Source of the DNA: Pelomyxa schiedti | Taxonomy: Eukaryota; Protista; Evosea | Assembly: GCA_020536535.1 (NCBI GenBank) | Contig: JAHLWZ010000381.1 | Location: 662 to 18,495, forward strand | Length of the DNA stretch: 17,834 nt | Reading direction: 5' to 3' | In this document: positions 161-17,834 of the stretch, in pieces | How positions within the stretch are numbered: the stretch's first letter is position 1 | Layout: the number at the start of each line of letters is the position of its first letter | Position numbers and translations under genes: made by a program | Notes under the pieces: generated by a model | Told to the model about the DNA's origin: nothing | The model's input: only the letters and a program-made list of their open reading frames with translations | Databases searched by the model: none

Positions 161-343
161 ATGGCGGATGCATCGCCGTCGCGTGGTACCGTCGAGAGTG
201 CGTCCCACAGCAGTTGTACAACCATTATGGGAGAGTCGTCGCCTGATACGCGCACAGCTGTGGAGCCTCAGGGCGACACCAGATTCCGTGAGTGGGCCGA
301 AGAAAACCGCCAACTATTGAATTGTCGTTTCTACGAGAACGAG
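161..343 (+). CDS. EIF2S1: eIF2-alpha (translation initiation factor 2 alpha subunit), exon 1. It ends ...LLNCRFYENE, which matches the canonical N-terminus MPGLSCRFYQHK. The start codon is uncertain: the in-frame ATG at 161 and the ATG at 227 both give an N-terminal extension.
   Basis: In-frame translation MADASPSRGT...RQLLNCRFYENE followed by donor GTTTTG at 344. The CRFY motif and the downstream exons align to eIF2-alpha as recalled from memory. Confidence 0.6.
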
Positions 344-411
344 GTTTTGTGTTTTGGTTTTGGTTTTGGTTTTGGTTTTGGTTTTGGTTTTGGTTTTGGT
401 TTTGTTTTTGG
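344..411. repeat. (GTTTTG)n microsatellite, about 11 units with 9 perfect units at 351-404, inside intron 1 of eIF2-alpha
   Basis: Read directly. The six-frame ORFs that show FGFGFG or FWFWFW are translations of this repeat. Confidence 0.95.
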
Positions 412-3173: not shown

Positions 3174-3308
3174 ATGGCAGCGAGTGAGAGGGGGGTGTTT
3201 AGCGACCACGTGTTTTTCCTTCTGGATCTTCCGGCTCCCAACAAAAAAAGTGTGACGCAAATCATACGAGACTATGGGGGAGAAGTCTCTTCGATGCCGT
3301 CAAAGATG
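3174..3308 (+). CDS. NACHT-TPR gene exon 1, the first half of the BRCT domain (MAASERGVFSDHVFFLLDLPAPNKKSVTQIIRDYGGEVSSMPSKM)
   Basis: ATG at 3174 and strong donor GTGAGT at 3309. Shows the BRCT pattern (hydrophobic core and the GG motif). Confidence 0.65.
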
Positions 3309-6300
3309 GTGAGTGAAACGTTTTGGATTTTGTAGTAAGTTTTGAGTCTGAGTTGATTTGTTTAGGTTACACATGTTGTGGTTAGGCCTGATGATTTGAG
3401 CAGTAATTCATTCAAAGTTCAAGCGATTCTCAAAAAGAACCCAGCAATGCAAGCTGTTCTCGAGACGTGGGTGCAAGATAAAACGAGAGGTGCCAGGAAG
3501 GTGGCACCAAAGCCAAAAGCTCCACCACCTCCACCTACACCTGCCTTTGTTCCACCAGAGGATGACACTATGTCCATGATCAGTGTCAGGACAACTTCGT
3601 CAGTGGCTTCTTCCGCGTCTGCTCTTGCACAAGTTGTTCCAGCGAAACCTGTCCCAGTACCTACTGTAACAATGGTCTTGCCAACTTCAGGTTTTTTGGG
3701 AAAATAAACTGTAACCCGACTTATGCTCCACAGGGCCAAATACTGGAGATTTCCGGCTTGCTCTTTTTGGTGTACACTTTAGACCAGGGCCAGGATTTAA
3801 GCTGAAAATAGGTTCCGTTACAGCAACGGAATACGAGTTCCATAGTAGCTCTTCTGTTATTGTAAATGTACCTCCTTGCACGTATGTTCCCTTCAATGCA
3901 ACAATAAGTCTGAAAGTCTTTAGGGTGCCTCCCGGAACTGTTCCTATACACGCCACAAATGACAATGGGCGCCACTATGGTTTTCCAATGGAGTTCCGTT
4001 TTTATGGTATTTTGTTAAAAAAAACCTATTCCTTCCTCACTAATGAATGAATAGATGCTGGTGCCGGCCAACTTTCCCAGTCAGTTGAACAAAAGGTTCT
4101 TGTGGGTGGTGAGTTCCTTCTACATTAACTTGCTGTCAGATTGCCATTCTCCGTGGGCAGCTTACAAACGTCCGAAGGGCCATTTCTAATATCCAACAAA
4201 CTGAAATCGATTTGAGGACGCAGCTTGCTCAACTCACTGATTTGAAACTATTGGAAGAGCTGGAACCCGAGGAGGTTGAATATATCTTTTGTGTGGAGAC
4301 TTTTTAAGGATTTTAGGTACCTCCTGAGCAAGCTGTGGCAGCTACAGAGAAACCGGCACCTCTTCGACATGAGGAGTTTGAGAGGGAAATTAGGATCTTC
4401 ATTTCCAGTCCATTCAGGGACATGAAGGAGGAGCGAGAGAAGATTGTGTGTTGCTTGTATTTCCTTGTCTCAATTTCCTTACGTTTAACACCATCTACCA
4501 TAGGTTAAACTTGTCATCCCCAAAGTACGCAAGTTATGTATGTCATTAGATGTTGCTGTCAGCTATGTAGATCTAAGATGGTACCTTTTTACTTCTTTAT
4601 TTTGTCTCACGTTTCTTTTTAGGGGTGTCACTGGGGCGCAAAGTGAGCAAGCCACTATGCTTTTGATGTGTCTAAGAGAAGTTGCCAAGTCAAATGTATT
4701 TGTGGGACTTTACGGGGAGCGTTACGGATGGGCAATTTCCAATGAGGGTGACACAAGTAACAACGACCTTCTAAGTCGCTCCTTTGATCTTGCTGCACGT
4801 GAATTCCCGTGGATTAACGAATACAGGGACAGAAGTGTTACTGAACTCGAGATGCGAATGGTACTGGTTTCTATACTGCTTTGCCATGTTCTGATCGTAA
4901 TCAGCTTCTTGGGCATAAATATGATGGTTCTAATAAACCTGCATGGTTCTATCTCCGTGATCCGTATTTCATCGAAGAAGTACCCAAAGAGCAAAGACAT
5001 CTCTTTGTGTCTGAAGGCCCAACTGCAAGTAGAAAGTTATCCACACTCAAGACAGATGTGCATAAAGCTGGACATCCTGTAAAGGACTACCTTCGAGCTG
5101 ATCAGATGGCCGAATTTATGTTTGAGGACTTAAAACAATATGTTGCTAAGAAGTATCCCGAGGTTGACCTACATTTTATCACTCTGAAATTGACCTGTTC
5201 CCAGGGTATGTCACTCAGTGACGAAGAACGTGAAGACCTCCGACATAAGCTCACTTCGCGAAACCTCACCCGTGTATACCTACCAAATGAAAGTAACTTC
5301 CTGGAACTTGACAAATTTGTCTCAAGTGAGAAGGAGTTACCTATGGTCATTGTTGGAGGGGTAGGGAGCAACAAATCCCTCTCCCACATTTAATATGCAC
5401 ATAGGGTGGCAGCGGCAAGTCTGCTTTGATGGCCAACTGGGTGATGAGACACAAGGTACTCAAATAATCATTTTCTCGTTAATATGATAAGGAGCACCAC
5501 CCCGAAGACGTAATTGCATTACACTATGTAGGCTGTTCGCCAGCATCAACGAATTATGCTTTCTTGCTTGGCAGGCTTATGCGGCTGGTACACGCCACTT
5601 TTACCACAGTGAAATTTACTCCATTAGATATCAGAACAACTTGGTGCCGCTGTCGATCTTCCATCTGATCAAAGCAAAACCCCTCTTGCATTTGTTACCT
5701 GGCTTTCCAACCTTTCAGTAGTAAATGTCAACAACCGCCGTATTGTGAGTTTTCTTCTCTTGCGCTTTTATCCAACTAAATTATTCAGATTGTGGTTATC
5801 GATGGTCTTAATAAGTTGGATGAACGAGATAATGCGCAAGAATTATTGTGGTTCCCTCAGTAAGCCAATATTGTCATCTTTATATGCGTTCTTAGTTTTC
5901 AAAAGAACTTTCCCGAGGTTCATGAGTGTCATAGTAACAACAGCTCCGATCCAAAGGATTGCGCATACCCTCAAAGTACCAAAGCCTTCCTTTGGTATTC
6001 AATTTACGCTTTGTAGAAACGCAACTGCCCAACAATGGACCTTGCTCTACTTGAGGAAGCAGAGCGCAAATCTTTTGTCCGAATGTACTTGAACCAGCGT
6101 GCAAAGAAGTTATCTGATCAGCAAGAATTTATGATTGCTTCCGCTGAGCAAACAGCTAATCCCAGGTTCGATTTATTTGGAGACTTAGACTTTTTTTTAT
6201 GCACTGTAGATTCTTACAGACACTCCTTGATGATATTGCAGTATTCGGGGAGCACGAAGCACTCGAAAAACGGATTAAGCAATGTCTTGCAGCGAAGAAC

Positions 6301-8904
6301 ACATCTAAGCTATATGAGCTTCTTCTCAACAGACTTGAATCGGACTATGACCCTGCAAAGAAGGGAATAGTGAAGCTATTCATGGCTTTAATTGGTGCAT
6401 CTAGACGTGGTCTCGATCTAGAAAACGAGGTTTCCGTATTGCTCGAGCAGAGTGGGATCACGCCTGATGAATGGTGCCCCTTTCCACTTCCGCTTTGTCT
6501 TCTGCCCTCTTACACTTGCCACTGCTAAACTTTTAATTACCAATTTAAGGTCCCCTCTGTTTGTAGTCATCGAGGAGCTTTTTATATCTATGAGAGGTAT
6601 ACTGAGCTTCGCAAACGAGGATATTGCTAAGGCTGCAAGATCTGTCTTCCTTTGGGATAAAACAATTAGAAACCAATTTCATCTTAAGATAGCAAATTTC
6701 TTCTCTGGTATACAAGGCTTTACAGAAAGAAAGGTTTCCATCCCAAAAAAAAAAAAAATCAAATTCCTAACTAAAACAAATCAAAAGCTTGAAGAGTTAC
6801 CTTACCAGTTGGAGATGGCCGAAGAATGGCCAAAATTAGTTGCTCTTCTCTGTGATGCAACTCTCTTTGATAAACTCTTCACACCTACAACCAAGTTTGA
6901 CCTGGTACATCTAGAGCCAAAATATTTTGTCTTATTTATGATCAATCCAGTTCCATTGGGTTCGACTGTGTGAAGGCAATGTGCCAGGATTTGATATTTG
7001 TGCCCCGTTTTTGGATAAAGTGTCTCGGAGTATATTCCCACCTGACCTTATCCCAGCTGATTTCTGTTATAAGTAAGTCATTACTGAAACATGACCCGCT
7101 AAAAAACATTACCCATAGGGTTGGCCGGTGCTTTGACGAAATGTCAAAGATTAAAGGAGCCGAGGTAATGTACCAAAAAGCTATTGAGTTATACTATGCC
7201 ACATCCATGCCTCTTGAAGTCGCCAAAGTCAAACGATACTTAGCACAGCTGTACCACATGACCAGCAGGTTTGTCATACCCACCTCGTTTGTTGGTCAAT
7301 TTTTGAAGGAGCGACAAAGCTGAAGCAATGCTGAAGGATCTCACTGAAATTTACGAAAAGGAGAAGGGTCCTGATGATATTGAGATAGCAACTACGTTAA
7401 ACAGTTTGGGAAGTCTATATGTTGACCTTTGCCAGTAAACTGTTCATGACAAGAAGTCAACTATTTACCTTTTTCACAGGGGACCAAGTGCACATCCTGT
7501 TCTAGAACGAGCTTTGCGAATATGTAAGTGACCTTTCCAGGCTTTCTAAGCGTTAAACTACAACAAGGCGAGGCACAAGTCGGTCCTGATCACAATATTA
7601 CTGCTGATATCGCTTATACTCTTGGTGCTTTATATCATTACGAGCGCGACTTACTTCCCAAAAATCTCGAAAAATCGGAAGAATTTCTCAAGGTACCTCT
7701 CCACTCACTAATACAAGTCTTACATGTGACTTAGCGAGCACTGAATATCAAAGAAAAGACATTTGGCTACTACCACCCAGATGTTGCGTGGGTGCTCAAT
7801 AAACTGGGGTGTGTGTACATGGAACAAGATCAGTATAATGATGCTGAAGAGTGCTTTACTGTATGTGGCACTCCTCATCGAGCCTCAGCACTAACTTCCC
7901 TTTAACAGATGGCACTAGAAATTCGAGAAATCTCCCTTGGACCAAAGCACGCTTCCGTAGCACAATCACTGGAAAATGTACTAACACTATTCGCCCTTCA
8001 GGAACGCTACACAACTGCCGAAGACTGTGGCAGAAGGTTGACTATAATAGTGCAATCAGTCCGCTAATGCTTATCTCTCTATAGAGCACTTGACATTCTC
8101 TCTGAAACCTTTGGAGAAAATAGCTTCCAAGTGAGCAGCATATTGCTTCGAGTGGGTGCCCTCATGTTTGTAATGGAGAAGAAACCTCAAGGGACACAAG
8201 ACCTGACTCGCGCAATTGCAATTCGCACAGCGCTTTTTGGACCAGGTCGGTGACGTGCTCTCCATTTGCTTTACTCAAACCCCCCGCCCCCGCCCTCTTC
8301 CAGATCATCCACACACAAAGGAGGCAAAGCTGACCCTGGAGGAGCTGGTGGCACCACCCAAGCCGGAACCGCCATCGATCAGGGAGCAGCCCAAGGCCCC
8401 ACCCCCGCCGCCACCCCCGCCTCCTCGCGCCTTCGTGGCCCCGCCGCCGCCACCCCCAACGCCCGGCGGTGCACCGGGCGGAATCCCGCCGCCCCCGCCG
8501 CCTCCACCTCCGCCGCCTCCCCCTCCTTCATCTGGAAAGCCGCCGCCCAAGACGAAGGTCACTGCTGCTGTGGCCCTGGAGAAGACTGAGAGTGTGTCGC
8601 TTGAGGATGCGATTCAGAAACAGACCGGGCTCCACCACGTCACGGAGGCGAATGATAGGTCCAGCGCCAGGTTGATAATCTCTCTTTCTTCACATATGTA
8701 TTCCTGCCACTTACGGATATTCACACTAGCCGGAATGCAGCAGCCATGGCTGGACTCAAGACCCGTAGGATGGTTGAAGTGAAGGGCAAAGCCAAAGCCC
8801 CCAGGTCCACACTGGCACAGTTCTTGCAAGCAAACAAGGCCACAACCCAGTTCACACAGCAACCAGTACTGGATGTCAAGCCGACGATGGACAAGAAGAG
8901 CTGA
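3174..8904 (+). CDS. span of a multi-exon gene (at least 20 exons) encoding BRCT, IPT/TIG-like, coiled-coil, DUF4062, NACHT NTPase, TPR array, polyproline and WH2-like domains. It is an NPHP3-like STAND protein.
   Basis: A continuous in-frame exon chain with 19 introns of 36-76 nt. The domain motifs were read from the translation. Stop TGA at 8902-8904 and AATAAA at 8907. Confidence 0.75.
3366..3690 (+). CDS. exon 2: the second half of the BRCT domain (VTHVVVRPDD...) plus a Pro/Ser-rich linker
   Basis: Acceptor TTGTTTAG at 3365 after a 57-nt intron. Open frame to the donor at 3691. Confidence 0.6.
3734..4006 (+). CDS. exon 3: IPT/TIG-like beta-sandwich domain (PNTGDFRLALFGVHFRPGPGFKLKIGSVTATEYEFHSSSSVIVNVPPCTYVPFNATISLKVF...FRFY)
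   Basis: A 91-codon open frame with no Met, so it is absent from the ORF track. It is bounded by a 43-nt intron (3691-3733) and donor GTATTT at 4007. It shows the IPT/TIG sequence pattern. Confidence 0.5.
4080..4108 (+). CDS. exon 4, a small exon (VQLNKRFLWV); the acceptor choice is uncertain
   Basis: This is the only phase-compatible connection between exon 3 and exon 5. Donor GTGAGT at 4109. Confidence 0.35.
4161..4274 (+). CDS. exon 5: coiled-coil segment (LTNVRRAISNIQQTEIDLRTQLAQLTDLKLLEELEPEE)
   Basis: Acceptor GTGGGCAG at 4160. Heptad-like composition. A 42-nt intron follows. Confidence 0.55.
4317..4445 (+). CDS. exon 6: the start of DUF4062 (…EFEREIRIFISSPFRDMKEEREKI)
   Basis: The IFISSPFRDM motif matches the NPHP3-type DUF4062 N-terminus VFISSTFRDM. 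Confidence 0.7.
4504..4580 (+). CDS. exon 7: DUF4062 (VKLVIPKVRKLCMSLDVAVSYVDLRW)
   Basis: A 58-nt intron upstream and a 42-nt intron downstream. VDLRWG is a conserved DUF4062 motif. Confidence 0.7.
4623..4860 (+). CDS. exon 8: DUF4062 core (GVTGAQSEQ...CLREV...FVGLYGERYGW...VTELEMRM)
   Basis: GERYGW and TELE are hallmark DUF4062/NPHP3 motifs. The exon is 79 codons plus a split Trp codon. Confidence 0.75.
4905..5360 (+). CDS. exon 9: the linker into the NACHT domain (…AWFYLRD…ELPMVIVGG)
   Basis: 152 codons in phase 0. Ends in the first half of the P-loop. Confidence 0.75.
5405..5455 (+). CDS. exon 10: NACHT Walker A (GGSGKSALMANWVMRHK), which completes GGGGSGKS
   Basis: A 44-nt intron upstream and a 36-nt intron downstream. 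Shows the GxxxxGKS P-loop. Confidence 0.8.
5492..5587 (+). CDS. exon 11 (EHHPEDVIALHYVGCSPASTNYAFLLGRLMRL)
   Basis: Aligns to the NPHP3-type segment after the P-loop. Donor GTACAC gives a 40-nt intron. The alternative 19-nt intron was rejected. Confidence 0.6.
5628..5744 (+). CDS. exon 12 (ISEQLGAAVDLPSDQSKTPLAFVTWLSNLSVVNVNNRRI)
   Basis: Strong donor GTGAGT at 5745. Confidence 0.6.
5789..5859 (+). CDS. exon 13: NACHT Walker B (IVVIDGLNKLDERDNAQELLWFP)
   Basis: Shows the hhhhDGLxxLDE pattern. Strong donor GTAAGC at 5860. Confidence 0.75.
5906..5975 (+). CDS. exon 14 (QTFPRFMSVIVTTAPIQRIAHTLK), the WLP..LP..VrvIvTtR-type NACHT motif
   Basis: A phase-2/1 junction across a 46-nt intron. A 41-nt intron follows. 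Confidence 0.6.
6017..6165 (+). CDS. exon 15 (KRNCPTMDLALLEEAERKSFVRMYLNQRAKKLSDQQEFMIASAEQTANP)
   Basis: In-frame chain. Resembles the NPHP3/NWD-type region ...SKPQSANPLYL. Confidence 0.6.
6210..6473 (+). CDS. exon 16 (RFLQTLLDDIAVFGEHEALEKRIKQCL...VLLEQSGITPDEW)
   Basis: A 44-nt intron upstream. Shows the conserved ...LLxELRVFGxxE-like motif. Confidence 0.6.
6550..6960 (+). CDS. exon 17 and possibly one more exon: the helical region leading into the TPR array (SPLFVVIEEL...KLEELPYQLEMAEEWPKLVALLCDATLFDKL...). The internal exon structure is not resolved. It contains an A13 tract encoding KKKK.
   Basis: A single long open frame. LPYQLxxAxxWxxL resembles the NPHP3/TEP1-type LPYHL..AGEW motif. 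Confidence 0.5.
7000..8245 (+). CDS. TPR array of kinesin-light-chain/NPHP3 type, with at least 6 TPRs over several exons. Examples: AIELYYATSMPLEVAKVKRYLAQLY; LKDLTEIYEKEKGPDDIEIATTLNSLGSLY; ALNIKEKTFGYYHPDVAWVLNKLGCVYMEQDQYNDAEECF; ALEIREISLGPKHASVAQSLENV; ALDILSETFGENSFQVSSILLRVGALMF. Exact exon boundaries were not derived.
   Basis: A repeating 34-aa pattern, A..L.NLA.LY...G.Y.EAE.L..RAL.I.EK..G..HP.VA, in successive short ORFs joined by GT..AG introns. Confidence 0.65.
8304..8670 (+). CDS. penultimate exon: polyproline tracts (PPPPPPPPP...PPPPPPPPPPPPPPP) followed by a verprolin/WIP-type WH2-like motif (SLEDAIQKQTGLHHVTEANDRS)
   Basis: Phase-1 junction from the last TPR exon (donor GTCGGT at 8246, a 58-nt intron). 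The Pro-rich, FH1-like tract and the ...L(K/H)(K/H)VxxxNDRS WH2 consensus are both present. Confidence 0.55.
8730..8904 (+). CDS. terminal exon (SRNAAAMAGLKTRRMVEVKGKAKAP...MDKKS*), with stop TGA at 8902-8904
   Basis: A 59-nt intron (8671-8729), an in-frame stop, then AATAAA. Confidence 0.5.
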
Positions 8905-8906
8905 GG

Positions 8907-8912
8907 AATAAA
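8907..8912 (+). promoter_or_regulatory. polyadenylation signal AATAAA, 3 nt after the stop of the NACHT-TPR gene. A second AATAAA lies at 8947-8952.
   Basis: Read directly. Confidence 0.6.
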
Positions 8913-9132
8913 ATGCCATGGATTGTATTGTGAGGATTAACTACCTAATAAACTCTTGTGTTGCAACCTCAATCCACATGAACAATTACCAAGTTCATTC
9001 TTCTCCACGAAAGTACTTCCTCAAGGGAAGTTCCCCAACAAAAAAAGCCAACCGCCCATTTTTGAGGTTTTTTCCTGCTACGAAAGTCTTCGCGTTGTTA
9101 ACAGATTTAATTTGATCGAATTCTGCCCGATC

Positions 9133-9267
9133 ATGGCGTCAACGGGCGGGTGCTGCGTGCTGCTGTGCGTGGGTAGTGTGGACACAAAAAAGAAGGCAAG
9201 GAGTCAACTGCGTGAGTGTGTCAACAAAGTGAAAGGCTTCACCACAAGTTTCGTCTTCGGCCCAAAG
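9133..9267 (+). CDS. PARP4: PARP4-like gene exon 1, the first half of the BRCT domain (MASTGGCCVLLCVGSVDTKKKARSQLRECVNKVKGFTTSFVFGPK)
   Basis: ATG at 9133. Aligns to the PARP4 N-terminal BRCT (…KKKLQTDIKENGGKFSFSLNPQC) recalled from memory. Donor GTCCGT at 9268. Confidence 0.65.
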
Positions 9268-9280
9268 GTCCGTGCGTGCT

Positions 9281-9347
9281 TTGGTTGTGTTTTTTTTTGG
9301 TTTTTTTGTTTTGTTTTTTGTGTTTTGGTTTTTTGCTTTTGGTTGTC
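9281..9347. repeat. imperfect (GTTTT/GTTTTTT)n T/G-rich microsatellite inside intron 1 of the PARP4-like gene
   Basis: Read directly. It belongs to the same motif family as the repeat at 344-411. Confidence 0.85.
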
Positions 9348-9394
9348 TGTGATCATGTTAATTTTTTTTTCTCTTGGTTGTGTGGACTGCACAG

Positions 9395-9487
9395 GTGACA
9401 CACGTAGTCGTTGACGATGTCGGCTGGAGGATATTTTCTATTTCTCCAAGGAAGATTGACTTGATAAAGAGATTGCGGATACACGTG
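9395..9487 (+). CDS. PARP4: PARP4-like exon 2, the second half of the BRCT domain (VTHVVVDDVGWRIFSISPRKIDLIKRLRIHV)
   Basis: Acceptor CTGCACAG at 9394 after a 127-nt intron. Strong donor GTGAGT at 9488. Aligns to THIILDNADVLSQYQLNSIQKNHVHI. Confidence 0.65.
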
Positions 9488-9556
9488 GTGAGTTGGATGT
9501 TTGAAATTTCCGGAATCTTGTTAGCCACCTTTTTTTTACGACTCTATTTGAATTAG

Positions 9557-9850
9557 GTTACACCTGCCTTTTTAGATGCCTGTACATCAAATAGCAGAAT
9601 TATGGAATGCTCAGATTTTGTGTATAATACTGTGAAGGAGGTTGTACTGAGCACAGAACCTCAGATATACTTGCCACCACAAGAACCAGACCCTGTACCT
9701 CCTGCGCCTGCTGCCTCCAGGGATACTTATATTCGAAGGGAAGTCATTGTTCCCTACAAATCCAAAGATGACCCTTTTAATGAAGCGGGTGCCTGGCTCG
9801 TTCAACACCATCTACTGCAAAAGCCATCATGGTTAGATCATTTTCGTTTC
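9557..9850 (+). CDS. PARP4: PARP4-like exon 3, 3' end approximate (…MECSDFVYNTVKEVVLSTEPQIYLPPQEPDPVPPAPAAS…)
   Basis: Acceptor TGAATTAG at 9556 with a 69-nt intron. Aligns to PDFIWKSIREKRLLDVKNYDPYKPLDITPPPDQ. Confidence 0.5.
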
Positions 9851-9882
9851 TAAGTATCCCTCTTTTCTAATTCGTTTCTAGC

Positions 9883-10191
9883 TTGGTGAAACTAGAATTG
9901 CATACCCGCAGCTCTTCTGATAATGCTTGGCGTGTGTATGAAGAAGTTGTGCCATGCCTTTCCACTGTGCCACCACAGACAAATACTCAGGGGAAATCAA
10001 AAAAGACCATCTCCCAACCAACACACAGGAGGCTGAGCCATCTCTTAGCCTCGGCCTCAGAGGCTATTTCTGTGTACTCCGCTCTCTATGAGAATTATAC
10101 CAACGTTGAAGGCTACACCCGCGTTGGAATACCTCCGTTTTCTTCCTTGGGATCAGATTTGGTATATGCTTCTCCAACGTTCTTTTTTTAA
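9883..10191 (+). CDS. PARP4: PARP4-like coding segment, exon boundaries not derived (…SEAISVYSALYENYTNVEGYTRV…)
   Basis: Aligns to the PARP4 segment SEDASEYFENYIEELKKQGF, recalled from memory. Confidence 0.35.
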   Translation: MVKLELHTRSSSDNAWRVYEEVVPCLSTVPPQTNTQGKSKKTISQPTHRRLSHLLASASEAISVYSALYENYTNVEGYTRVGIPPFSSLGSDLVYASPTFFF

Positions 10192-10711
10192 CTATTAAAA
10201 GATAGGTAATGGATTAAGTCCCGGGTCTGTTCTTCCTGCAATGATATCACAGCTTGTGCAAGTCATTTTTAACGGTCAGTGATGATAGAACTCTGTTTTC
10301 GAATAACATTTTTCAGCTTCATCTTCTAAGTTTGCTGGCTTGAATACTATGACACTGGATATATCATTAGACACTCTAAATGAGGCAGAGGCTATTCTAT
10401 GGTCCCTGCAAGAGCTTAGCCTTTCCAATCAACAAGGCTCTCCGAAATTCATTGAGGTATGGCACTTGAACTCGATCTTTCTCTGTGTAAATTATTTTAA
10501 CAGCTAAATGATAAACTTTCCTCGTTGCTCCCATTTAGTGATCAGCACATAACCTCAAATGAAGCATTGCTTGAGAAATATGAGTTCATCCAAACTCTAA
10601 AAGATTCTCTTTGCCTGAATGAAGGTACCCACTAAACGTGCATATTTAAGCTAATTTTCACCAGGGATCACACTTCCAGGCAGTTCTGTACAGTCCAACT
10701 CCATCATAGAT

Positions 10712-10960
10712 ATGCATTACCGCAGTCTCAATTGTCGTTTGGAATATACAGATGATCCTGCTGTGAGAGAGCTAACTTCCCGTGTCCAAGCCTCTCTAAC
10801 ATCAGCCCCTACCTTGCTACACGTGGAACATGTGTTTCATGTTGCGCGCCCTTCGGAAAATGAAGTCTTTTCTAATGTGGGTAATGTGAAACTTCTATTT
10901 CACGGTACCAAAGTGGAGCGGGTAGCTGGTATTCTTTCACATGGACTGGTTTTACCAAAG
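10712..10960 (+). CDS. PARP4: PARP catalytic domain, part 1 (…NVKLLFHGTKVERVAGILSHGLVLPK), with the donor-loop His-Gly-Thr motif. The 5' boundary is approximate.
   Basis: LLFHGTxxxxxxxILSxGL matches the PARP signature LLWHGSRxxNxxGILSQGL. Donor GTTTCC at 10961. Confidence 0.65.
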
Positions 10961-11096
10961 GTTTCCCTCAAAGCAATTCGATCTATTTTCTCAGTGCCTT
11001 AGGTTTCTGTAACTAAACTTGGAATCAAGAGAGTGGATGCTGGCCAACTTGGGGTGCACATTTGTTTCGTTTAGTTTCGTTTTACATGCCCTACAG

Positions 11097-11285
11097 AATG
11101 GTATATACTTTGCAACAGATGCCGCTGTAAGTGCTAAATACTGTAACTCTTTTGGGGAAACGTCGTTCCTATTGGTGGCTTCAGTTTCCTTAGGCAAATC
11201 TATGGATACACCAGCTCCACGAGTAGGAACCACTGCCGACACTTTACCCAACGGGTATCTGGAAATTCGAAGGGAATTTATTCTC
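11097..11285 (+). CDS. PARP4: PARP catalytic domain, part 2 (NGIYFATDAAVSAKYCNSFGETSFLLVASVSLGKSMD…). The 3' boundary is approximate.
   Basis: Acceptor CCTACAG at 11096. GIYFAxxxSKSxxYC is the PARP signature. Ser sits at the position of the catalytic Glu (LLVASVSLG against LLLGEVALG). Confidence 0.65.
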
Positions 11286-11309
11286 TAATATGTTTCTTCA
11301 GATTCCACA

Positions 11310-11810
11310 GTGTGCACTCCATCCCGAGGCATACCGACCCCAACTCGGCCTTCGAGGATGAGGAATTCTGTGTACCTCTCCCAATTTGTGAAACTGCATC
11401 ATGACCACCGACAGGTATTTGATAGCCGACAAATAATCCTGGAATACATTATCCAACTTACAAAAGCCCCTAAATCAATACCATCAACACTACCAATGCC
11501 GTCTTTTCCACAAGTTTCAATCTCTGATCCAACCACCGCCCCAGACGATCTGAAGTCTATTTTTCTTGCACCACCTTCTCTCAGCGTTTCACCCACGAAA
11601 AAGCAATCTCCTGTATACCCGGTTTTGATTGGTCAAGGCGGAGTACGTTTTTCAGTTGAAAGTACAACTGTGGCAGCCAGAATACTTGATTTAGTGGCTG
11701 AAGTTGTAGTTATTCAACATTTTAGCAATACTGGCGTTGTAGCTTGTGAAGCGAAGTATATATGCCCAATAGATAGCCATGGTTGTATATCTGCCCCCAC
11801 AATACTCTAA
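11310..11810 (+). CDS. PARP4: VIT (vault protein inter-alpha-trypsin) domain region (…VYPVLIGQGGVRFSVESTTVAARILDLVAEVVVIQHFSNTGVVACEAKYICPIDSHGCISA…). Exon boundaries were not derived.
   Basis: Aligns to PARP4 VPLEDVHIKGRIIDTVAQVIVFQTYTNKSHVPIEAKYIFPLDDKAAVCGF, recalled from memory. Confidence 0.5.
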   Translation: MCTPSRGIPTPTRPSRMRNSVYLSQFVKLHHDHRQVFDSRQIILEYIIQLTKAPKSIPSTLPMPSFPQVSISDPTTAPDDLKSIFLAPPSLSVSPTKKQSPVYPVLIGQGGVRFSVESTTVAARILDLVAEVVVIQHFSNTGVVACEAKYICPIDSHGCISAPTIL

Positions 11811-12377
11811 CCTCTCCTAGCTGCTGTTTGTGCTTTCGAATGTTACATAAATGACAAGCATGTAGTGGCACACATAGAAGAAAAAGGTCTTTTTCTTTTT
11901 TTATTGTGCCAATTGAAACAATGTCAAATATTAGGTAAGGCTCGAAAAGAATACAAAGAAGGTACACGTTTGTGCTTGACTTTTTTGTAACTTATAAGAA
12001 TACAGCAATTGAGCAAGGGCATGGAGCGTAGGTAAGCCAGATTCCTTCTACTTCTTTACCTCTATTAGGTATTTACTCGAAGAAGAATCCCCAGATGCAT
12101 GGTGCATGTCTCTTGGAAATCTTCCAGGCATATCTTGCCATGATGTTCTTACTTCCTCTTATTCTTCAAAGCAAACGCCGAAATTGTTGTTAAAATTACA
12201 TATGTGGAAGACCTGGCTTTAGCATCTAATGGGGTAAGTCCGTCAAAAGTAGTGAAATTTGTGTCTAATCAACAATACTCAGATTACCTTTACCTTACCT
12301 GCGGCTCTTGCCGGCCGTGAGGACCGTCTCAATAGTGTAACAACAACCCAAACGGCAGTTGCAACAGTTATCAAAGT

Positions 12378-12662
12378 ATGCTCCAAACAACTAGGGTAGG
12401 TATCTCATTTAGTCAGGCTCATTCCAGCGCGCCGTCATTCCATTTGGAAGCGGGAATTACTATGCCCTATGACATCACTGGCATCACTTCACCATCTCAT
12501 TTGAAAGATGTTCAAGTGAAACACACCAACACAAAGGCAACTGTCAGGGCTTTAATGACGGAACTTACAGCAGACTTTGTACTACTTATTTCTATCAAGA
12601 ACGCCCATGAACCCCGAATGTGGTTGGAAGTAAAGGACTCATCTCTACTGCTTTTTACTTAA
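12378..12662 (+). CDS. PARP4: VIT C-terminal region (…ITMPYDITGI…ALMTELTADFVLLISIKNAHEPRMWLEVKDSS…). Exon boundaries were not derived.
   Basis: Aligns to PARP4 SIEMPYVIEFIF…GFSLHIGLSAAYLPRMWVEKHPE, recalled from memory. Confidence 0.5.
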   Translation: MLQTTRVGISFSQAHSSAPSFHLEAGITMPYDITGITSPSHLKDVQVKHTNTKATVRALMTELTADFVLLISIKNAHEPRMWLEVKDSSLLLFT

Positions 12663-12671
12663 CACTTTCAG

Positions 12672-13148
12672 GTGGATGATACACAAAACTGGGCAGCGAT
12701 GATTTCTATATCCCCAGATTTTCAAAATTATATACAGTCTGCCTGTCAGAGCAGATCTGAGGTCATATTCGTGGTTGACAGGTCCATAAGCATGGCCTCC
12801 AATCTTGCAACTTTACGTTGGGCTCTTCAGGTAATCAGATGGATGATTTTGCACTCTCACGAAACTCAGATACTCATATCCCAACTGGGAAGTGAGGATA
12901 TGTTTAATGTAGTTGGATTTGGATCCCACTTTGAGTCGTTATTTGTACAGTCGCAATCTGCAACTTCCGCCAAACCTGTCGGGTACAGATATGCCCAAAT
13001 GTTACAAGCCACCTTTGGGGGTACTTCCCGTCACCATACCTCCCTCCCCAAGCTTAATCACCTTTTTCAACAGGCACAAATCTTTACTCTGTTCTCAGAG
13101 CAGTGTTTTCTCTTGGTCAATCCAATGACTTCTCTTCAAGAACAGTAA
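12672..13148 (+). CDS. PARP4: von Willebrand factor A (VWA) domain with the MIDAS motif DRSIS (…SEVIFVVDRSISMASNLATLRWALQV…DMFNVVGFGSHFESLF…MLQATFGGT…). Exon boundaries are approximate.
   Basis: Shows the VWA pattern hhhhhDxSxSM....hh......FnhhxFgs........A..Ggt. Confidence 0.6.
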   Translation: MDDTQNWAAMISISPDFQNYIQSACQSRSEVIFVVDRSISMASNLATLRWALQVIRWMILHSHETQILISQLGSEDMFNVVGFGSHFESLFVQSQSATSAKPVGYRYAQMLQATFGGTSRHHTSLPKLNHLFQQAQIFTLFSEQCFLLVNPMTSLQEQ

Positions 13149-13678
13149 TCCTTCTCACTGATGGCCTTTTTGACATTTTTCCCGTATTGCCCATAGTGAA
13201 AAGGTGGAGAGACTCCTTGTATCTCAGTATTAAATCTGTTTAGTGCCCGGGCTCACACCAAACTATTTACTGTTGGAATCGGGGAGGCATCCAGGCATTC
13301 TATTTGCACCCTTGCACGGATAGGTGGGGGATGCTGTCAGTTCGTTCCATCCAATCCCTCACCCAAACATGAGAAACTGTTGAATCACATGTTAGCACAA
13401 CGAAATCAAAATGTGGCTTCCCTAAATTTGGAACATTCTTATACTGTTTTAGACTTTATCTGGTATAAACATCAAGTGGCACACAACACACACAATTAAG
13501 CAAGTACCCTCTGAAATTTACAATATGTTTCAGAATCAGGTTTTCCTCCAAGACTAGTTTTCCTTTTTCTAACACATTAAAGTCTTATACTATTTATGGT
13601 CTCCTTAGTGGCATATGTAACCAGGTGTCAATTCAGGGGAATATCGGAGCACAGTTTTACCCTCACCCAATAAATTAG

Positions 13679-13874
13679 TGGTAATCGAGAGCAGGGAGTT
13701 TTCCACAACAGTGTCATCAAGTGAACTTACTGCTACACATGGCACATTGATTCACAAACTGGCAGCCAGAGAGCTTATTCGAGATTGGGGGGAAAATTCT
13801 CTCCACGAACAGGATACAGAGCACTTTGTACAAAAAAATAATATGGTTTCAGATGTTATTGCTCTAAGTAAAAA
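13679..13874 (+). CDS. PARP4: PARP4-like exon (…TTVSSSELTATHGTLIHKLAARELIRDWGENSLHEQDTEHFVQKNNMVSDVIALSKK). The acceptor is approximate.
   Basis: Aligns to PARP4 TTELQKTTGTMIHKLAARALIRDYEDGILHENE, recalled from memory. Donor GTATGG at 13875. Confidence 0.55.
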
Positions 13875-13928
13875 GTATGGATATCAAAATACAAAAATGG
13901 AGTTAGGATAGTAATATACTACAAAAAG

Positions 13929-14025
13929 GTATGGCTTCATCACTCCTTTTACTTCTTTTGTGGCAGTGGAAGAGAGAAACCGTAATGACGCCTTAGTTTT
14001 GAAAGCACCTTCAGTGAAAGAGATT
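13929..14025 (+). CDS. PARP4: PARP4-like exon (YGFITPFTSFVAVEERNRNDALVLKAPSVKEI)
   Basis: A 54-nt intron (13875-13928). FTSFVAVE matches PARP4 FTSFVAVEKRDE, recalled from memory. GTA at a codon boundary (14026) gives a phase-0 donor. Confidence 0.55.
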
Positions 14026-14068
14026 GTATCAGAGTCTAAATTTTTGTACTTCCTTTGACTGCCAACAG

Positions 14069-14251
14069 CTGCAAGGCCATGACGTCGATGAAATCAAAGA
14101 AATTGCTTGGGAGCATGACCTTGAACCAGTCCCAAAGAAGGACGAACTTCAGAAACAACGAGATTCAAATTCCTTTTCCATTGCTCTTTATGGTGACCCA
14201 CAGACTGGTATAAAAACTCACCCACACTTTTACCTCCTAAGACATCTCAAG
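14069..14251 (+). CDS. exon entering the Ran-like domain (LQGHDVDEIKEIAWEHDLEPVPKKDELQKQRDSNSFSIALYGDPQTGIKTHPHFYLLRHLK). There is no in-frame ATG, so it is probably a continuation of the PARP4-like ORF through a 43-nt intron (14026-14068).
   Basis: FSIALYGDPQTGIKT-HPHFYLLRHL aligns to Ran [21 protein letters not shown]. The P-loop carries a one-residue insertion that displaces the Lys. Donor GTAAAA at 14252. Confidence 0.65.
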
Positions 14252-14324
14252 GTAAAACAGCTTGGCTAAAACGCATGGTTTTTCCTTCAAATTTGCAACC
14301 CAATCCCCATTTATACAACTACAG

Positions 14325-14660
14325 CTGAGCGGGGAGTTTGAGCACAAATACATTGTAACCCAGGAGCCAGAGCAATTCAAACTGACTCTAAGTACAAATC
14401 GAGGTGCTATCCACTTTAATTTGTACGACATGCCTGGTGTAGCTACCAGCACAGCAACCCCTCCTACTGCCCATGATGGTAGTATAGTCTTCTTTGACGT
14501 TACTTCTCGCGCGTCATATAAAAATCTGCCCATCTGGTACATGAAGGCTGGAAGCACTTCCGGTTCACCTACAAGTCCAGTTGTTGTATTTGTTGGCAAT
14601 AAAGTGGACTGCTCAGAACGGAAACTTCATGCTCGACAAATTGTCTTTCATAAGAAAAAG
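14325..14660 (+). CDS. Ran-like GTPase domain core (LSGEFEHKYIVTQ…RGAIHFNLYDMPGVATSTATPPTAHDGSIVFFDVTSRASYKNLPIWY…VVVFVGNKVDCSERKLHARQIVFHKKK)
   Basis: Collinear with Ran [39 protein letters not shown]…[22 protein letters not shown]…[26 protein letters not shown]. The G4 motif NKVD is conserved. G3 DTAGQ is replaced by DMPGV. Confidence 0.75.
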
Positions 14661-14705
14661 GTATTGGCTCTCCTTTCTCAAGTGTCTTCCTGATTGCCAA
14701 TTTAG

Positions 14706-14728
14706 AATTGCAAGTACTATGACCTAAG
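14706..14728 (+). CDS. 23-nt micro-exon (NCKYYDL), matching Ran NLQYYDIS
   Basis: Flanked by 45-nt and 44-nt introns (donors GTATTG and GTACCT). Confidence 0.6.
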
Positions 14729-14772
14729 GTACCTCCTTTTATGATATCCACTCTTAAGTATTTACTCTTTAG

Positions 14773-14832
14773 TGTTAAATCTTCGTACAACCTGGAGTCA
14801 CCTCTACTAAGTCTTGCCCGGTCCCTTTTATG
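14773..14832 (+). CDS. Ran-like exon (SVKSSYNLESPLLSLARSLL + C), matching Ran [21 protein letters not shown]
   Basis: The G5 motif SAK is retained as SVK. A 40-nt intron (14833-14872) restores the frame into the next exon. Confidence 0.55.
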
Positions 14833-14872
14833 GTTGTGCACAATCCTTCTCCCTGAATTTAATTCTTCTCAG

Positions 14873-16297
14873 TGACCCACAATTGGAGTTTGTTCAAGAA
14901 GTGGCACTTGCTCCACCTGAAGTAACTTTGGATCAGGCATTAATAAAGAGGTGGGAACAGGATTTAGCTGATGCAGCATCAATCCCCCTTCCCGATGAGG
15001 ATGATGACTTTGGAGGCACTGTTCCATCCAGTGCTGTCGCTCCTCAGCATGCAGTGCCGTCCAGTACCTTTGATTTCGCTCTCCGACCAAGCAAAGAAAA
15101 AAGTGCACCAGGTCCAACAGGCTTTTTCAGTCAATCTGCTACAGTTCCATCTGTGCAAGCTTCTGTTACCCATTCAGTACCATCTCTTTTTAGCTCTCCA
15201 GTTGCACCTTCCTTTAATTTCGCTTCACAAGCCACTACCTCTCGAGGGTTATTTTCTCCCCAAGGACAAGTGACGTCAACTCAACCTTCTCCTCTATTTG
15301 GCGCACCTCTGCCCTCCTATACTCCACCGGCCCCGTCACCTTTTGGTAGTTCTTCATCATTGTTTTCTGGCAGTTCGTTTGGATCTCAACCACAACCTTC
15401 TACCGCTGCATTTGGCACTGCAAGCACTTCTTCACTTTTTGGCGGATCCCAACAGGTACCTGCCTCGAGTGGGGGCGCTGTGAGTGCGTTTGGAGCTCTA
15501 GCATCTCCTACTTCCGTTTTTCCACAGGCATCATTTGGCATGGCAAGCCCTGCAATGTCCACTACAATCCCTGCAGCCACTTGTTGTCTGCCGTCCATCT
15601 TTCCTGCAGCCAGTTCTACTACTTCCACTCTCTTTTCTGCACCACAAATATTTCCCTCGGCCGCATCTTCCACAGCACAGTTGTTCCCAGCGCCTCAATT
15701 GTCCTCTTTCCCAACATTCAGTCTACCGGCCACTCCTGCAGCCAGTTGTACGTCCACCTTCAGTCTACAGGCCTTTCCTGCAGCCAGTTCTACTACTTCC
15801 ACTCTCTTTTCTACACCACAAGTATTTTCCTCTGCACCAACTTCCGTAACGGCGTTGCCGCCGGCGCAGCAATTACCGTCTTCCGCCACTTTTGCTCCAC
15901 CCACTACTCCACAGCTCAGGTCTCCACATCCTGGGACTGGAACAATTTCATTTGCAGCTGCCAGAGCGCGAAGCAAGGCATTTCAAAATAGGAAACACTC
16001 TGAATCAGATATTAGTAATACAAGCAAGTCTTCAATTGACCCTCCCTTGCCTCCGTTCTGCTGCCGTGCTTGTTGCAGCCCCTCCACACTCAGTGATTCC
16101 CAATTGCAGTTTGTACTTAAGGGACCTAAGAATACGAAGAGGATCTGGGGTGTGTGCTGGATGGATGCCGTTCTTGCATTAGCATCAACCTTGTCACCTT
16201 TACGTGACTGGGCATGTTGTACTAGGAACGGAGAACCTCCTATTGGCTATGCTGGCAGCTTACTTGAGTGTATCACATCATTTTTCCGCTGTTGGAT
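14873..16297 (+). CDS. Ran C-terminal tail (DPQLEFVQEVALAPPEV…LADAASIPLPDEDDD) that continues, with no stop, into a roughly 470-aa FG/SLFG/AFG-repeat low-complexity region (nucleoporin-like). It ends at TAA 16299-16301, or splices at the GTAAGT donor at 16298.
   Basis: A 495-codon open frame. DPQLEFV..ALAPPEV…PDEDDD matches the Ran C-terminus DPNLEFVAMPALAPPEV…LPDEDDDL. Many xFG, SLFG and FGxxS repeats follow. Confidence 0.65.
15568..15915. repeat. in-frame tandem duplication of about 174 bp inside the FG-like region, with unit starts CCTGCAGCCA… at 15568, 15603, 15736 and 15777
   Basis: Read directly. TTTCCTGCAGCCAGTTCTACTACTTCCACTCTCTTTTCT recurs at 15597 and 15771. The protein repeats are FPAASSTTSTLFSAPQIF and FPAASSTTSTLFSTPQVF. 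Confidence 0.7.
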
Positions 16298-16338
16298 GTA
16301 AGTAATTCATCAACCTATCAATGTTTCAACCCCTTAAG

Positions 16339-16688
16339 ATCTGAGGACGTAGGAAGTGTAACTTACAATAAGTATCTGAATACGACACACAAACGCACAG
16401 CAAGCAAATTTTCCGATCTCGGATTCGCCGAAGGAAAGCCACAGTGCGTTGTCAAGGCACTCAATTGCTTGATTGAGGAAGCTTCACTATTTATTACAGA
16501 GGTAGGTAGAACATTCATGCTTTCCCTTACAAGCATGACTGTACAGGTACGAGACATTATTACTGTGCCCTCCACAAATCTTGGGGAGATCCTCACACGT
16601 AAATTGGAACAAATAATTCCGCAAATAATCACAATTTCAGAGTTTACTGTTGCAAGTGCACCTCCAAAGTGGATCATATGTATAAATA
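16339..16688 (+). CDS. tentative continuation exon after a 41-nt intron (ISEDVGSVTYNKYLNTTHKRTASKFSDLGFAEGKPQCVVKALNCLIEEASLFITE…WIICIN). The product is unknown, possibly the C-terminal globular domain of the PARP4-like protein.
   Basis: In-frame with the FG exon through GTAAGT 16298 and AG 16338. Open for 116 codons. Long ORFs on both strands overlap here. Confidence 0.3.
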
Positions 16689-16756
16689 GTACATGCAGGA
16701 AGATACCTCGTACCACTTTATACCAATACAAGCTAGGTCTAATTTGATTTTGATAG

Positions 16757-17310
16757 GGATACCAGACGATTGTGCCTATGTTTTGCATTCTTTCATTGTA
16801 TTTGAACCCATTGGGAAGTATTTTGACATGCCGGTGAATCACTTTGTTACCGTATCCCCCGACCAGAAGGGCTACTGGATATACGATGATCTGTTGTGCC
16901 TCACTCCTGGAGGTCTGTGCTCCCCGCACCATGCTTTCCACACAGTCGATTCTAATGCCGTAACAACAACAGAATGGCAAGGCGGATTCTGTTCGTGGGA
17001 CTCTCCGGACAGTACCCAAACATTCAAGAAACTCCGTTCCAAAGTTCCTGTGAGCACTCCTGATCCCAACCAACACCCTTCTCATGCCAACACATATAAT
17101 GACCAAACATTAGGTTTTCATTCTACGGCACCAAGATGTCCCTTGGCCACCAACAAGTACCTACCAGGCTCCTCGTTTGCGCTCCGAACAGTTCTCACAG
17201 TACTGAACTCCAACATTCTAAGCATAAAACAGAGAAGCATAAAGTTTCGTTTTTTTTTCATGTACACATTCCACACGGCCAAGACACAAAATCTGGTCCG
17301 TTCAGAATAA
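16757..17310 (+). CDS. tentative further exon (R IPDDCAYVLHSFIVFEPIGKYFDMPVNHFVTVSPDQKGYWIYDDLLCLTPGG…), with stop TAA at 17308-17310
   Basis: A possible 68-nt intron (16689-16756) joins the two + frames. AATAAA lies about 190 nt downstream at 17501. A 240-aa ORF lies on the opposite strand. Confidence 0.3.
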
Positions 17311-17500: not shown

Positions 17501-17506
17501 AATAAA
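17501..17506 (+). promoter_or_regulatory. AATAAA polyadenylation signal, consistent with a + strand transcript ending at about 17520-17540
   Basis: Read directly. Confidence 0.35.
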
Positions 17507-17696: not shown

Positions 17697-17834
17697 TGAA
17701 GGGCAAAAAGGGTAGCAGCGGCCACAGTGGAAAGACGACCAAGTCTACGTCGACTACGTCTACGTCCACAACCACGTCATCGTCGTCCACCACATCCAAG
17801 AGGAAGAGGCCGAGACACGACGCTCGCGAGGAGG
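17697..17834 (+). CDS. 5' end of a new ORF (MKGKKGSSGHSGKTTKSTSTTSTSTTTSSSSTTSKRKRPRHDAREE…) that runs off the window. It is S/T-rich with a basic NLS-like KRKRPR motif.
   Basis: ATG at 17697, open to the window end. TATAAA sits directly upstream at 17688-17693. The opposite-strand ORF (VDVDVV…) is its antisense shadow. Confidence 0.3.

Follow-up and report, generated by a model that had tools for sequence, protein, structure and literature searches.

A PARP4-like gene of Pelomyxa schiedti predicted to carry a Ran-derived module, an FG-type tract, and a C-terminal USP-fold domain

Ran is almost always a free-standing protein and is extremely conserved, and it is, to our knowledge, rare for a Ran paralogue to be built into a large enzyme. 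A locus of the amoeba Pelomyxa schiedti raises the question of whether such an arrangement exists. The window analyzed here, that is, the whole stretch of 17,834 nucleotides (nt) at positions 662 to 18,495 of the forward strand of contig JAHLWZ010000381.1 (assembly GCA_020536535.1), is eukaryotic; its genes are densely packed and its GT-AG introns very short. In this window, a PARP4-like reading frame is followed by Ran-like sequence and then by a low-complexity tract with phenylalanine-glycine (FG) motifs. A first-pass annotation, made from the letters alone, had proposed that a single gene encodes all of these parts, with the Ran-like module between the vWA region and the low-complexity linker. 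Is this one gene or two, what remains of Ran within it, and where does it end?

Exact threading of the public protein KAH3763470.1 (P0007) onto the window yields a single coding sequence at 9133-17206 (+), with 39 exons and 2087 amino acids (aa) identical to the record. Its public name is [quoted passage not shown], and it was found by exhaustive phmmer with a 91-residue query from the large exon (16008-16280 region), at 100% identity. The gene had at first been taken to end at 16297; coding sequence continues from there to the stop codon listed in Table 1. The 38 introns measure 39-127 nt (median 43.5), and one of them is of the GC-AG type. For the genome as a whole, 7.43 introns per gene have been reported, with Augustus models refined by PASA/EVM and single-cell transcriptomes (PMC8887013). 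The same paper is silent on PARP, vault, and the PARP4-like gene.

The first point to settle is the junction between the vWA part and the Ran part. As first annotated, a short GT-AG intron (intron 27) joins the two in frame, and the same intron is present in KAH3763470.1. The peptide across the junction reads APSVKEI followed directly by LQGHDVDEIKEIAWE. When the intron is read through, a stop is reached at 14056-14058 (FLYFL, then stop), 10 nt before the acceptor. The in-frame join at 14026-14068 is weak evidence when taken alone, because dozens of GT/AG pairs at the junction can be joined in frame. These features, as well as the computational origin of the GenBank model (Augustus/PASA/EVM; PMC8887013) and the end of the conserved VIT-vWA module close to the junction, would fit an alternative in which a PARP4-like gene ends at FLYFL and in which gene prediction mis-merged it with a separate Ran-FG-USP-like gene whose start would lie in an unseen 5' exon, at an internal promoter, or in a trans-spliced leader. 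Several observations speak against such a merger. No in-frame ATG lies between the stop at 14015-14017 and the P-loop, so that the Ran-like domain has no start codon of its own, as the first-pass annotation had stated. No AATAAA or ATTAAA occurs between 13669 and 14598, an interval that covers the would-be stop. The upstream neighboring gene (stop near 8905) has an AATAAA within a few nt of its stop and another approximately 45 nt downstream. Moreover, two genes at this point would be separated by at most 10 nt (14056-14068), compared to approximately 230-490 nt for the intergenic spacers elsewhere in the window.

The decisive evidence for one gene, as we read the alignments, is comparative and does not come from the automatic GenBank model. 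A 60-kb ENA contig from another organism (L001; GC 38% compared to approximately 43% here) is collinear with all of P0007, from the BRCT region to the C-terminal domain, and has the same order of PARP, VIT, vWA, linker, Ran, FG, and C-terminal domain. Its junction reads ...ELTSFIAIEERLPLESISNTVPPISDV, then an intron GTAAAA...34 nt...CAAG, then IGLAVDEIPEIGWPEEKAPP...FTVAILGDSDTGKT. This 34-nt GT-AG intron lies at the same codon boundary and in the same phase as intron 27, its read-through likewise hits a stop, and the linker that follows contains no Met. By our own reading, five of the six intron positions of the Ran module, the junction intron counted, are common to the window and L001. In three homologues without a Ran part (L006, P0020, and P0011), the peptide that spans the junction is one uninterrupted open reading frame (ORF), with the sequence APSISELIEKENVDSLDYMGFE in L006, ...NDPIPEISFD in P0020, and ...VVDPLPYVAWSGD in P0011. 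Homology to Ran starts only 34 residues into exon 28. Because the junction peptide is contiguous in these Ran-less proteins, exon 28 opens with ancestral PARP4-like sequence, homologous to what stands directly after FTSFVA(V/I)E in the relatives. The mis-merging of two genes is therefore very improbable. An origin of the acceptor at 14068 in an operon or by spliced-leader trans-splicing, with an AUG donated by the leader, was considered as well and set aside in view of the same ancestral sequence downstream of the acceptor.

A further alternative concerns the assembly. Whole-genome-amplified DNA is prone to chimeras. The P. schiedti assembly was obtained from such DNA of single cells (PMC8887013), and amplification might have set a Ran fragment beside a PARP4-like gene. 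Against this, the same gene order and the same junction are found on the independent 60-kb contig, whose composition differs and whose proteins are 30-50% identical, and composition is smooth across the junction in the window. A chimera is hardly credible under these circumstances. The proposal that a single gene carries a Ran-like module, placed after the vWA region and ahead of the low-complexity linker, is thus supported by the threading of KAH3763470.1, the collinearity of L001, and the junction peptide of the Ran-less homologues.

The part upstream of the Ran module has the layout of a PARP4. The PARP4 or clade 5 proteins are defined by a PARP catalytic domain midway along the protein, followed by VIT and vWA domains (PMC2964712, PMC4245714). 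Pfam searches find this order in the window protein, in which PARP lies mid-protein and is followed by VIT and vWA. The BRCT-PARP-VIT-VWA reading of the upstream ORF was thereby upheld for PARP, VIT, and VWA; the BRCT match stays below threshold, and the homologue P0020 has a BRCT match of 1e-6 at the equivalent place. The H-Y-E triad was located by eye only, at LLFHGT (10892-10909), NGIYFA (11097-11114), and ILEYII (11436-11453). The window protein belongs with the amoebozoan members of the PARP4 (clade 5, “vault PARP”) family. In human PARP4, the C-terminus is the region that interacts with the major vault protein. The window protein differs in its USP-fold C-terminus and in the Ran and FG modules that it carries.

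How much of Ran has been kept? The spliced translation of 14171-15011 matches human Ran in a phmmer search of the PDB with an E value of 1.1e-54 (query 7-212 against Ran 10-215 of 216), and the Pfam Ras model is matched at 1.9e-17 over profile positions 3-160 of 162. The five exons that had been described as collinear with Ran (14069-14207, 14252-14277, 14325-14660, 14706-14728, and 14773-14832) are so indeed, with the guanine-binding motifs G4 and G5 kept, and a sixth exon (14873-16297) brings the Ran C-terminal extension and tail. The introns between them are 14208-14251, 14278-14324, 14661-14705, 14729-14772, and 14833-14872. Profile searches of the translated exons thus recover Ras as well as the PARP, VIT, and VWA models. 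The P-loop GDPQTGKT (14192-14259; GDGGTGKT in Ran) is split by introns, and GxxxxGKT is intact once 14208-14251 and 14278-14324 are removed. The L001 module has GDSDTGKT in a single exon, and its GDSDTGKTSWIKRL confirms the splice that leaves the P-loop intact. An exon chain that reads through intron 14208-14251 was also tried; it gives a false P-loop, “GDPQTGIKTHPHFYLLRHLK”, with an insertion, and an E value of 1.4e-49. It was rejected in view of the public model and L001 (TGKT[AS]W[LI]KR), the E value improving to 1.1e-54. Other motifs are the switch II segment DMPGVA (14427-14444), NKVD (14598-14609), SVK (14727-14779), and the tail LPDEDDDF (14988-15011).

The module is 46% identical to canonical Rans and 49% identical to that of L001, while canonical Rans mostly share 76-82% across distant taxa (two closely related pairs are higher). 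Kept in both modules are GxxxxGKT, the switch-I Thr, Asp65, NKVD, S-V-K, ALAPPE, and the acidic tail; the basic patch IVFHKKKN is kept in the window, and L001 has IQFPRTQN instead. The two modules also have derived states in common. G19/G20 are replaced by PQ in the window and SD in L001, and Gln69 by V and D, respectively. The G3 motif reads DMPGVA and DVPSDA instead of DTAGQE, with G68 kept in the window and lost in L001. In G5, SAK has become SVK in both, and GNKVD of G4 is retained. The switch II helix (KFGGLRDGYY) has given way to a non-homologous S/T/P-rich loop in both modules, and both have an insertion before beta-5. The earlier label of a degenerate Ran therefore fits G19/G20, Gln69, and switch II, which are lost, and does not fit G1, G4, and G5, which are kept.

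The mutations classically used to make Ran GTPase-deficient are G19V and Q69L. The window module resembles such mutants in that its substitutions fall at exactly G19/G20 and Q69, and it is collinear with Ran up to the Ran-specific C-terminal extension and DEDDD tail; Q69L Ran chains are among its top PDB matches. It differs from Ran in its level of identity, its switch II loop, its insertion before beta-5, and its embedding in a 2087-aa protein instead of a free-standing form of approximately 25 kDa. With the nucleotide-binding motifs kept, G19/G20 and Gln69 lost, and a loop in place of the switch II helix, the module most likely binds guanine nucleotide, cannot hydrolyze it, and would act as a conformationally fixed Ran-like domain and not as a switch. 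In canonical Ran, switch II contributes to the interfaces with NTF2, RCC1, and RanGAP and to part of the karyopherin interface. By analogy, the module has probably lost these contacts to NTF2, RCC1, and RanGAP together with some of those to karyopherins, because the switch II helix is replaced by the S/T/P-rich loop and an insertion precedes beta-5. Preservation is best in the C-terminal half and the tail, surfaces that in Ran are used by Ran-binding domain (RanBD) proteins. With these surfaces best preserved and switch II lost, a RanGTP surface for importin-beta is not the safest prediction.

Four micro-exons occur in the PARP4-like gene, at 12006-12027 (22 nt), 14706-14728 (23 nt), 14252-14277 (26 nt), and 11935-11961 (27 nt), next to introns of 41-48 nt. 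The P-loop of the Ran module is split between Gly and Lys by one of them. The sole GC-AG intron is 12128-12171 (GCATAT...CAAAG, 44 nt); introns of this type make up 1.59% of those in P. schiedti (PMC8887013). An imperfect T/G-rich repeat (9280-9344) occupies most of intron 1, which at 127 nt is the longest intron of the gene.

The Ran tail runs into the low-complexity tract without interruption, as the first-pass annotation had it; with correct splicing, no in-frame stop follows LPDEDDDF. The tract itself is shorter than the approximately 470 residues given there and comprises 338 aa, and the last approximately 90 codons of the large exon (from 16038) begin a folded Cys-rich domain. The 338 residues include 31 Phe (9.2%) and only 14 D, E, K, or R. 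Eight FG motifs are present compared to 1.74 +/- 1.23 expected in 20,000 shuffles (p = 1.5e-4, approximately 4.6-fold). Seven of the eight are clustered in 15285-15548, and the remainder of the tract uses F-S and F-P. The motif types are PLFG, SPFG, SSFG, AAFG, SLFG, SAFG, and ASFG. A direct repeat of 138 nt (15599-15736 and 15773-15910, 76% identity, 174-nt spacing) encodes FPAASSTTSTLFS(A/T)PQ(I/V)F... and suggests that the tract has expanded recently. Tandem Repeats Finder reported no tandem array in the FG region. An FG tract also precedes the USP-like domain in L001, and a third sequence, L003 (JGI metagenome 3300044998), has at least eight FG motifs in 1-760 (AFSFG, SSFG, ISFG, FSFGGFG, ALFG, NLFG, and KSFG), with T-rich spacers, directly upstream of a USP-like domain; the L003 contig is cut off upstream, too early for a Ran-like or PARP part to be visible. 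The tract is similar to FG nucleoporins in that it is Phe-rich, charge-poor, and enriched in FG of the xSFG/xLFG/xAFG type, with S/T/P/A-rich spacers. Unlike them, it has only eight FG motifs, uses F-S and F-P in its second half, shows no recognizable pore-anchoring domain, and is attached to enzymes and not to a scaffold nucleoporin.

Downstream of the tract lies a domain that the first reading had missed. Homologues of this C-terminal domain were found in metagenomic and SRA-derived assemblies. In alignment A2, C40, H210, and D225/D226 are invariant in five species, and the sequences share the Cys in G-x-C-W-[LM]-D-A, N-H-[FY], G-Y-x-I-Y-D-D-L-L, Q-G-G-F, and a terminal V-P strand. An AlphaFold2 model of the homologue P0013, built from a 7-sequence alignment, has a mean pLDDT of 65 and a pTM of 0.70, and the top approximately 29 Foldseek matches to it are all USP catalytic domains (USP18, E 4e-5). 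The only PDB matches of the family profile are to USP21 (E approximately 2), with the conserved Cys and His aligned to the catalytic residues of its Cys and His boxes. Pfam returned no family, UCH, UCH_1, and Peptidase_C98 included, for the C-terminal domain of the window or for P0009, P0011, and P0013. A phmmer search of the PDB with this domain gave no match, and a word-indexed protein search likewise found none. Because no curated Pfam USP model matched, the domain is termed USP-fold or USP-like here and not a member of an existing family. It differs from the USP family (C19: USP18, USP12/46, USP14, and the SUMO-specific USPL1) in the lack of a significant sequence match to the Pfam USP model or a PDB chain, and in its compact size of approximately 265 aa. 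On the modelled fold and the invariant residues, it would be a USP-fold peptidase-like domain and is probably active.

Table 1. Features of the PARP4-like gene in the window, with the USP-fold domains of related sequences
Feature	Position	Strand	Details
BRCT-like N-terminal region, aa 17-85	9181-9583	+	Crosses introns; Pfam BRCT E 0.0055, 17.3 bits against a 21.3-bit cutoff
PARP catalytic domain, aa 411-579	10778-11459	+	Pfam PARP 2.8e-22; 6e-25 on curated piece
VIT domain, aa 646-755	11658-12203	+	Pfam VIT 1.6e-31, whole profile
vWA domain, aa 897-1047	12759-13343	+	Pfam VWA_3 7.2e-14, VWA 1.6e-7; MIDAS-type DRSIS 12777-12794
Conserved post-vWA region	13344-14025	+	FTSFVAVEE (to 13974), ...APSVKEI at end of exon 27; aligns with L001, L006, P0020, P0011
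Intron 27	14026-14068	+	43 nt, phase 0, GTATCA...CCAACAG; joins ...APSVKEI to LQGHD... in frame
Ancestral linker, aa 1216-1249	14069-14170	+	LQGHDVDEIKEIAWEHDLEPVPKKDELQKQRDSN, without Met; motif VD.I.EI.W kept in Ran-less homologues
Ran-derived module, aa 1250-1456, exons 28-33	14171-15011	+	phmmer against PDB, Pfam Ras, alignment
FG-type low-complexity region, 338 aa	15009-16022	+	S 21%, A 14%, P 14%, T 11%, F 9%
USP-fold domain, aa 1799-2065, exons 33-39	16038-17137	+	Cys box IWGVCWMDAVL 16143-16175, with the conserved, putatively catalytic Cys C1838 in GVCWMD; His/Asp box NHFVTVSPDQKGYWIYDD 16837-16890; last strand VPVFILR
Stop codon TGA	17204-17206	+	Nearest downstream AATAAA at 17501
USP-fold domain in related sequences	L001 10463-11515; L003 191-1510; L004 ~7700-8470; L006 4758-6272		With the window, ends PARP4-like proteins in at least five organisms

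When these proteins are compared, a family plan emerges that consists of a BRCT-like region, PARP, VIT, and vWA domains, a post-vWA segment (FTSFVAVE...VD.I.EI.W), then either a variable slot or a disordered linker, and finally the C-terminal USP-fold domain. P0020 is one ORF of 5034 nt with BRCT-PARP-VIT-vWA, “YTSFIAIEERD”, a Q-rich linker, and the start of the USP-like domain; its His-box part lies in an open frame just downstream, probably past an intron. In P0011, “LTSFFAVERR” is followed by an A/P-rich linker and the USP-like domain. L006 (Logan SRR25885115) has the order PARP-VIT-vWA-14-3-3-USP-like, with the 14-3-3 domain at 3922-4785, after FTSFVAIE...VD.... The Pelomyxa lineage has a Ran paralogue with introns of its own in this slot, followed by the FG tract. 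The Ran and FG parts are regarded as an insertion because Ran-less homologues pass from the same post-vWA motifs, via a linker or a 14-3-3 domain, to the same C-terminal domain. Since the slot of relatives holds a 14-3-3 domain or only a linker, we read the insert, from these comparisons, as a lineage-specific adaptor swap in the amoebozoan PARP4-like family. Taken together, the one-gene structure and this evolutionary reading are likely correct.

Expansion of clade 5 PARPs with extra domains in Amoebozoa has been described (PMC4245714; Citarelli et al. 2010, PMC2964712), and PARP4-like proteins with an appended 14-3-3 domain occur in Amoebozoa and some opisthokonts (Perina et al. 2014, PMC4245714). 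In that survey, no Ran paralogue or FG insert is listed and the USP-fold domain is not recognized; unspecified “ubiquitin-related domains” are given for two Acanthamoeba proteins only (PMC4245714). The 14-3-3 proteins are similar to the window protein in their PARP-VIT-vWA core and in having a normally free-standing, unrelated adaptor after the vWA domain, and L006 has it in the same slot with the same USP-like domain next; the insert of the window differs in being a Ran paralogue with an FG tract. Because the 14-3-3 domain of L006 sits in the Ran and FG slot before a USP-like domain, the 14-3-3-bearing proteins of PMC4245714 may also carry a USP-like domain. Already known, then, are the protein itself, deposited in GenBank under an automatic PARP4 name, and domain accretion in amoebozoan clade 5 PARPs. 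Our literature searches on PARP4 with Ran-like and “Ran-like domain” yielded nothing relevant, with no description of the Ran/FG insertion or the USP-fold domain. A word-indexed protein search with a Ran-FG query returned six canonical Rans only and no fusion. A metagenome contig scan came back empty.

In an AT-rich species with a PARP4-like gene without Ran (L004), the next gene downstream (8662-9246, -) encodes a divergent small GTPase (precomputed Pfam Ras/Roc). It was considered as a clue to the origin of the Ran insert and set aside; by eye it is Rab-like (LLLIGSTEAGKT...WEQGG...GTKCE...CSAK) and not Ran.

One polypeptide thus combines an ADP-ribosyltransferase core, a vWA domain with a metal ion-dependent adhesion site (MIDAS), a fixed Ran-like domain, an FG-type disordered tract, and a USP-fold domain. 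What could the insert do? The Ran-like domain and the FG tract might form a joint targeting or adaptor module that would dock the two catalytic ends of the protein (ADP-ribosyltransferase and USP-type isopeptidase) at Ran-binding or FG-binding transport factors or the nuclear pore, in parallel to what the 14-3-3 domain may do for phosphoproteins in sister proteins. As a tentative proposal built on the motifs kept, such a recruitment module for transport factors or the pore that positions both catalytic ends is possible. A more specific version, in which a dual enzyme is docked at the pore or at karyopherins and a constitutively “on” Ran mimic together with FG captures importin-beta-type receptors or RanBD proteins at two sites, so as to bring an ADP-ribosyltransferase and a ubiquitin/Ubl isopeptidase to transport complexes, seems unlikely. 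Function as a “karyopherin trap”, suggested earlier, is speculation.

Several points weigh against these proposals and against the architecture on which they build. The number of FG motifs, eight, is at the low end for FG nucleoporins. Switch II differs even between the window (DMPGVA) and L001 (DVPSDA), which weakens a RanGTP-like effector surface. The USP fold was modelled on the metagenomic homologue P0013, approximately 31% identical in A2, and not on the window sequence. The KAH3763470.1 model is a computational prediction, and the organism of L001 may be a fairly close relative of P. schiedti, limiting any dating of the insertion. In addition, “vault PARP” would be a family label for the window protein; any vaults of P. 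schiedti would be hypothetical.

Two other accounts of the single gene compete with the recruitment module. In one, the insert is inert, a captured gene copy that serves as a spacer between the vWA and USP-like domains and drifts to low complexity. The slot does accept unrelated content (Q-rich, A/P-rich, or 14-3-3), evolution is fast (46% identity to Ran, where canonical Rans share roughly 80% with one another), neither switch II nor the catalytic Gln has survived, switch II moreover being unlike between the two species, and the FG tract varies in length and has a recent internal duplication. Yet two lineages only 49% identical have both preserved the reading frame and every splice site along with GKT, NKVD, S[V]K, ALAPPE, and the acidic tail, the micro-exons of 23 and 26 nt remain in frame, and an FG tract upstream of the USP-like domain recurs in a third organism (L003); an inert spacer is accordingly rather improbable. 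In the other account, the Ran-like domain would be an intramolecular, nucleotide-dependent regulator whose tail and basic patch gate the PARP or USP-like domain, with FG as a condensate-forming or flexible linker unrelated to the pore. In RanGDP the tail and the basic patch pack together, and embedded Ras-like domains such as those of ROCO and Miro act in cis. The module retains its nucleotide-binding motifs, its acidic tail is among the best-conserved parts, and the basic patch is kept in the window. This account is nevertheless doubtful: DxxG is not conserved in L001 (DVPSDA), for which reason a switch that senses the gamma-phosphate is doubtful, and no logic of guanine nucleotide exchange factors or GTPase-activating proteins is evident.

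Around the PARP4-like gene, the upstream neighbor (3114-8905, +) matches BRCT (E 1.8e-4), DUF4062 (6.6e-5), and TPR_12/nephrocystin-3-type TPRs (7e-8). Inspection by eye adds an IPT-like segment, the P-loop VGGVGSNKS, and, within the GC-rich interval 7500-9000, a tail rich in Pro, Gly, and Arg; the protein looks STAND/NLR-like. Both adjacent genes start with a BRCT-like domain. The next gene downstream begins in 17697-17834 (+) with MKGKKGSSGHSGKTTKSTSTTSTSTTTSSSSTTSKRKRPRHD..., approximately 490 nt past the PARP4-like stop and approximately 200 nt past the AATAAA at 17501. A (GGTTTT)11 microsatellite lies near the start of the window (343-411).

The pairing of PARP with a deubiquitinase-like domain does not seem to have been described. 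Legionella SidE-family effectors combine a deubiquitinase and a mono-ADP-ribosyltransferase in one polypeptide, and PARP9/DTX3L may be compared likewise. The likeness, ADP-ribosyltransferase and ubiquitin-directed activity in one polypeptide or complex, would be a functional analogy only; catalytic folds and domain order differ, and no homology is claimed.

The architecture is well supported, conserved, and odd, and is relevant to specialists in nuclear transport and PARPs, although its host is a little-studied anaerobic amoeba. A Ran module that is changed at both positions used to obtain GTP-locked Ran, and that stands beside FG repeats, amounts to a natural experiment on the question of which surfaces of Ran remain useful in the absence of a GTPase cycle. 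The content of the slot, which by lineage is nothing, a 14-3-3 domain, or Ran with FG, suggests a modular “client-recruitment” position. If the modelled fold holds, the USP-fold domain at the C-terminus of amoebozoan PARP4-like proteins would be a concrete enzyme-level link of ADP-ribosylation with ubiquitin-like modification. Were the reading as a docked dual enzyme true, this would be the first natural Ran-FG fusion, the PARP4/vault family would be mechanistically tied to nucleocytoplasmic transport, and clade 5 PARPs would carry a cryptic deubiquitinase-type domain.

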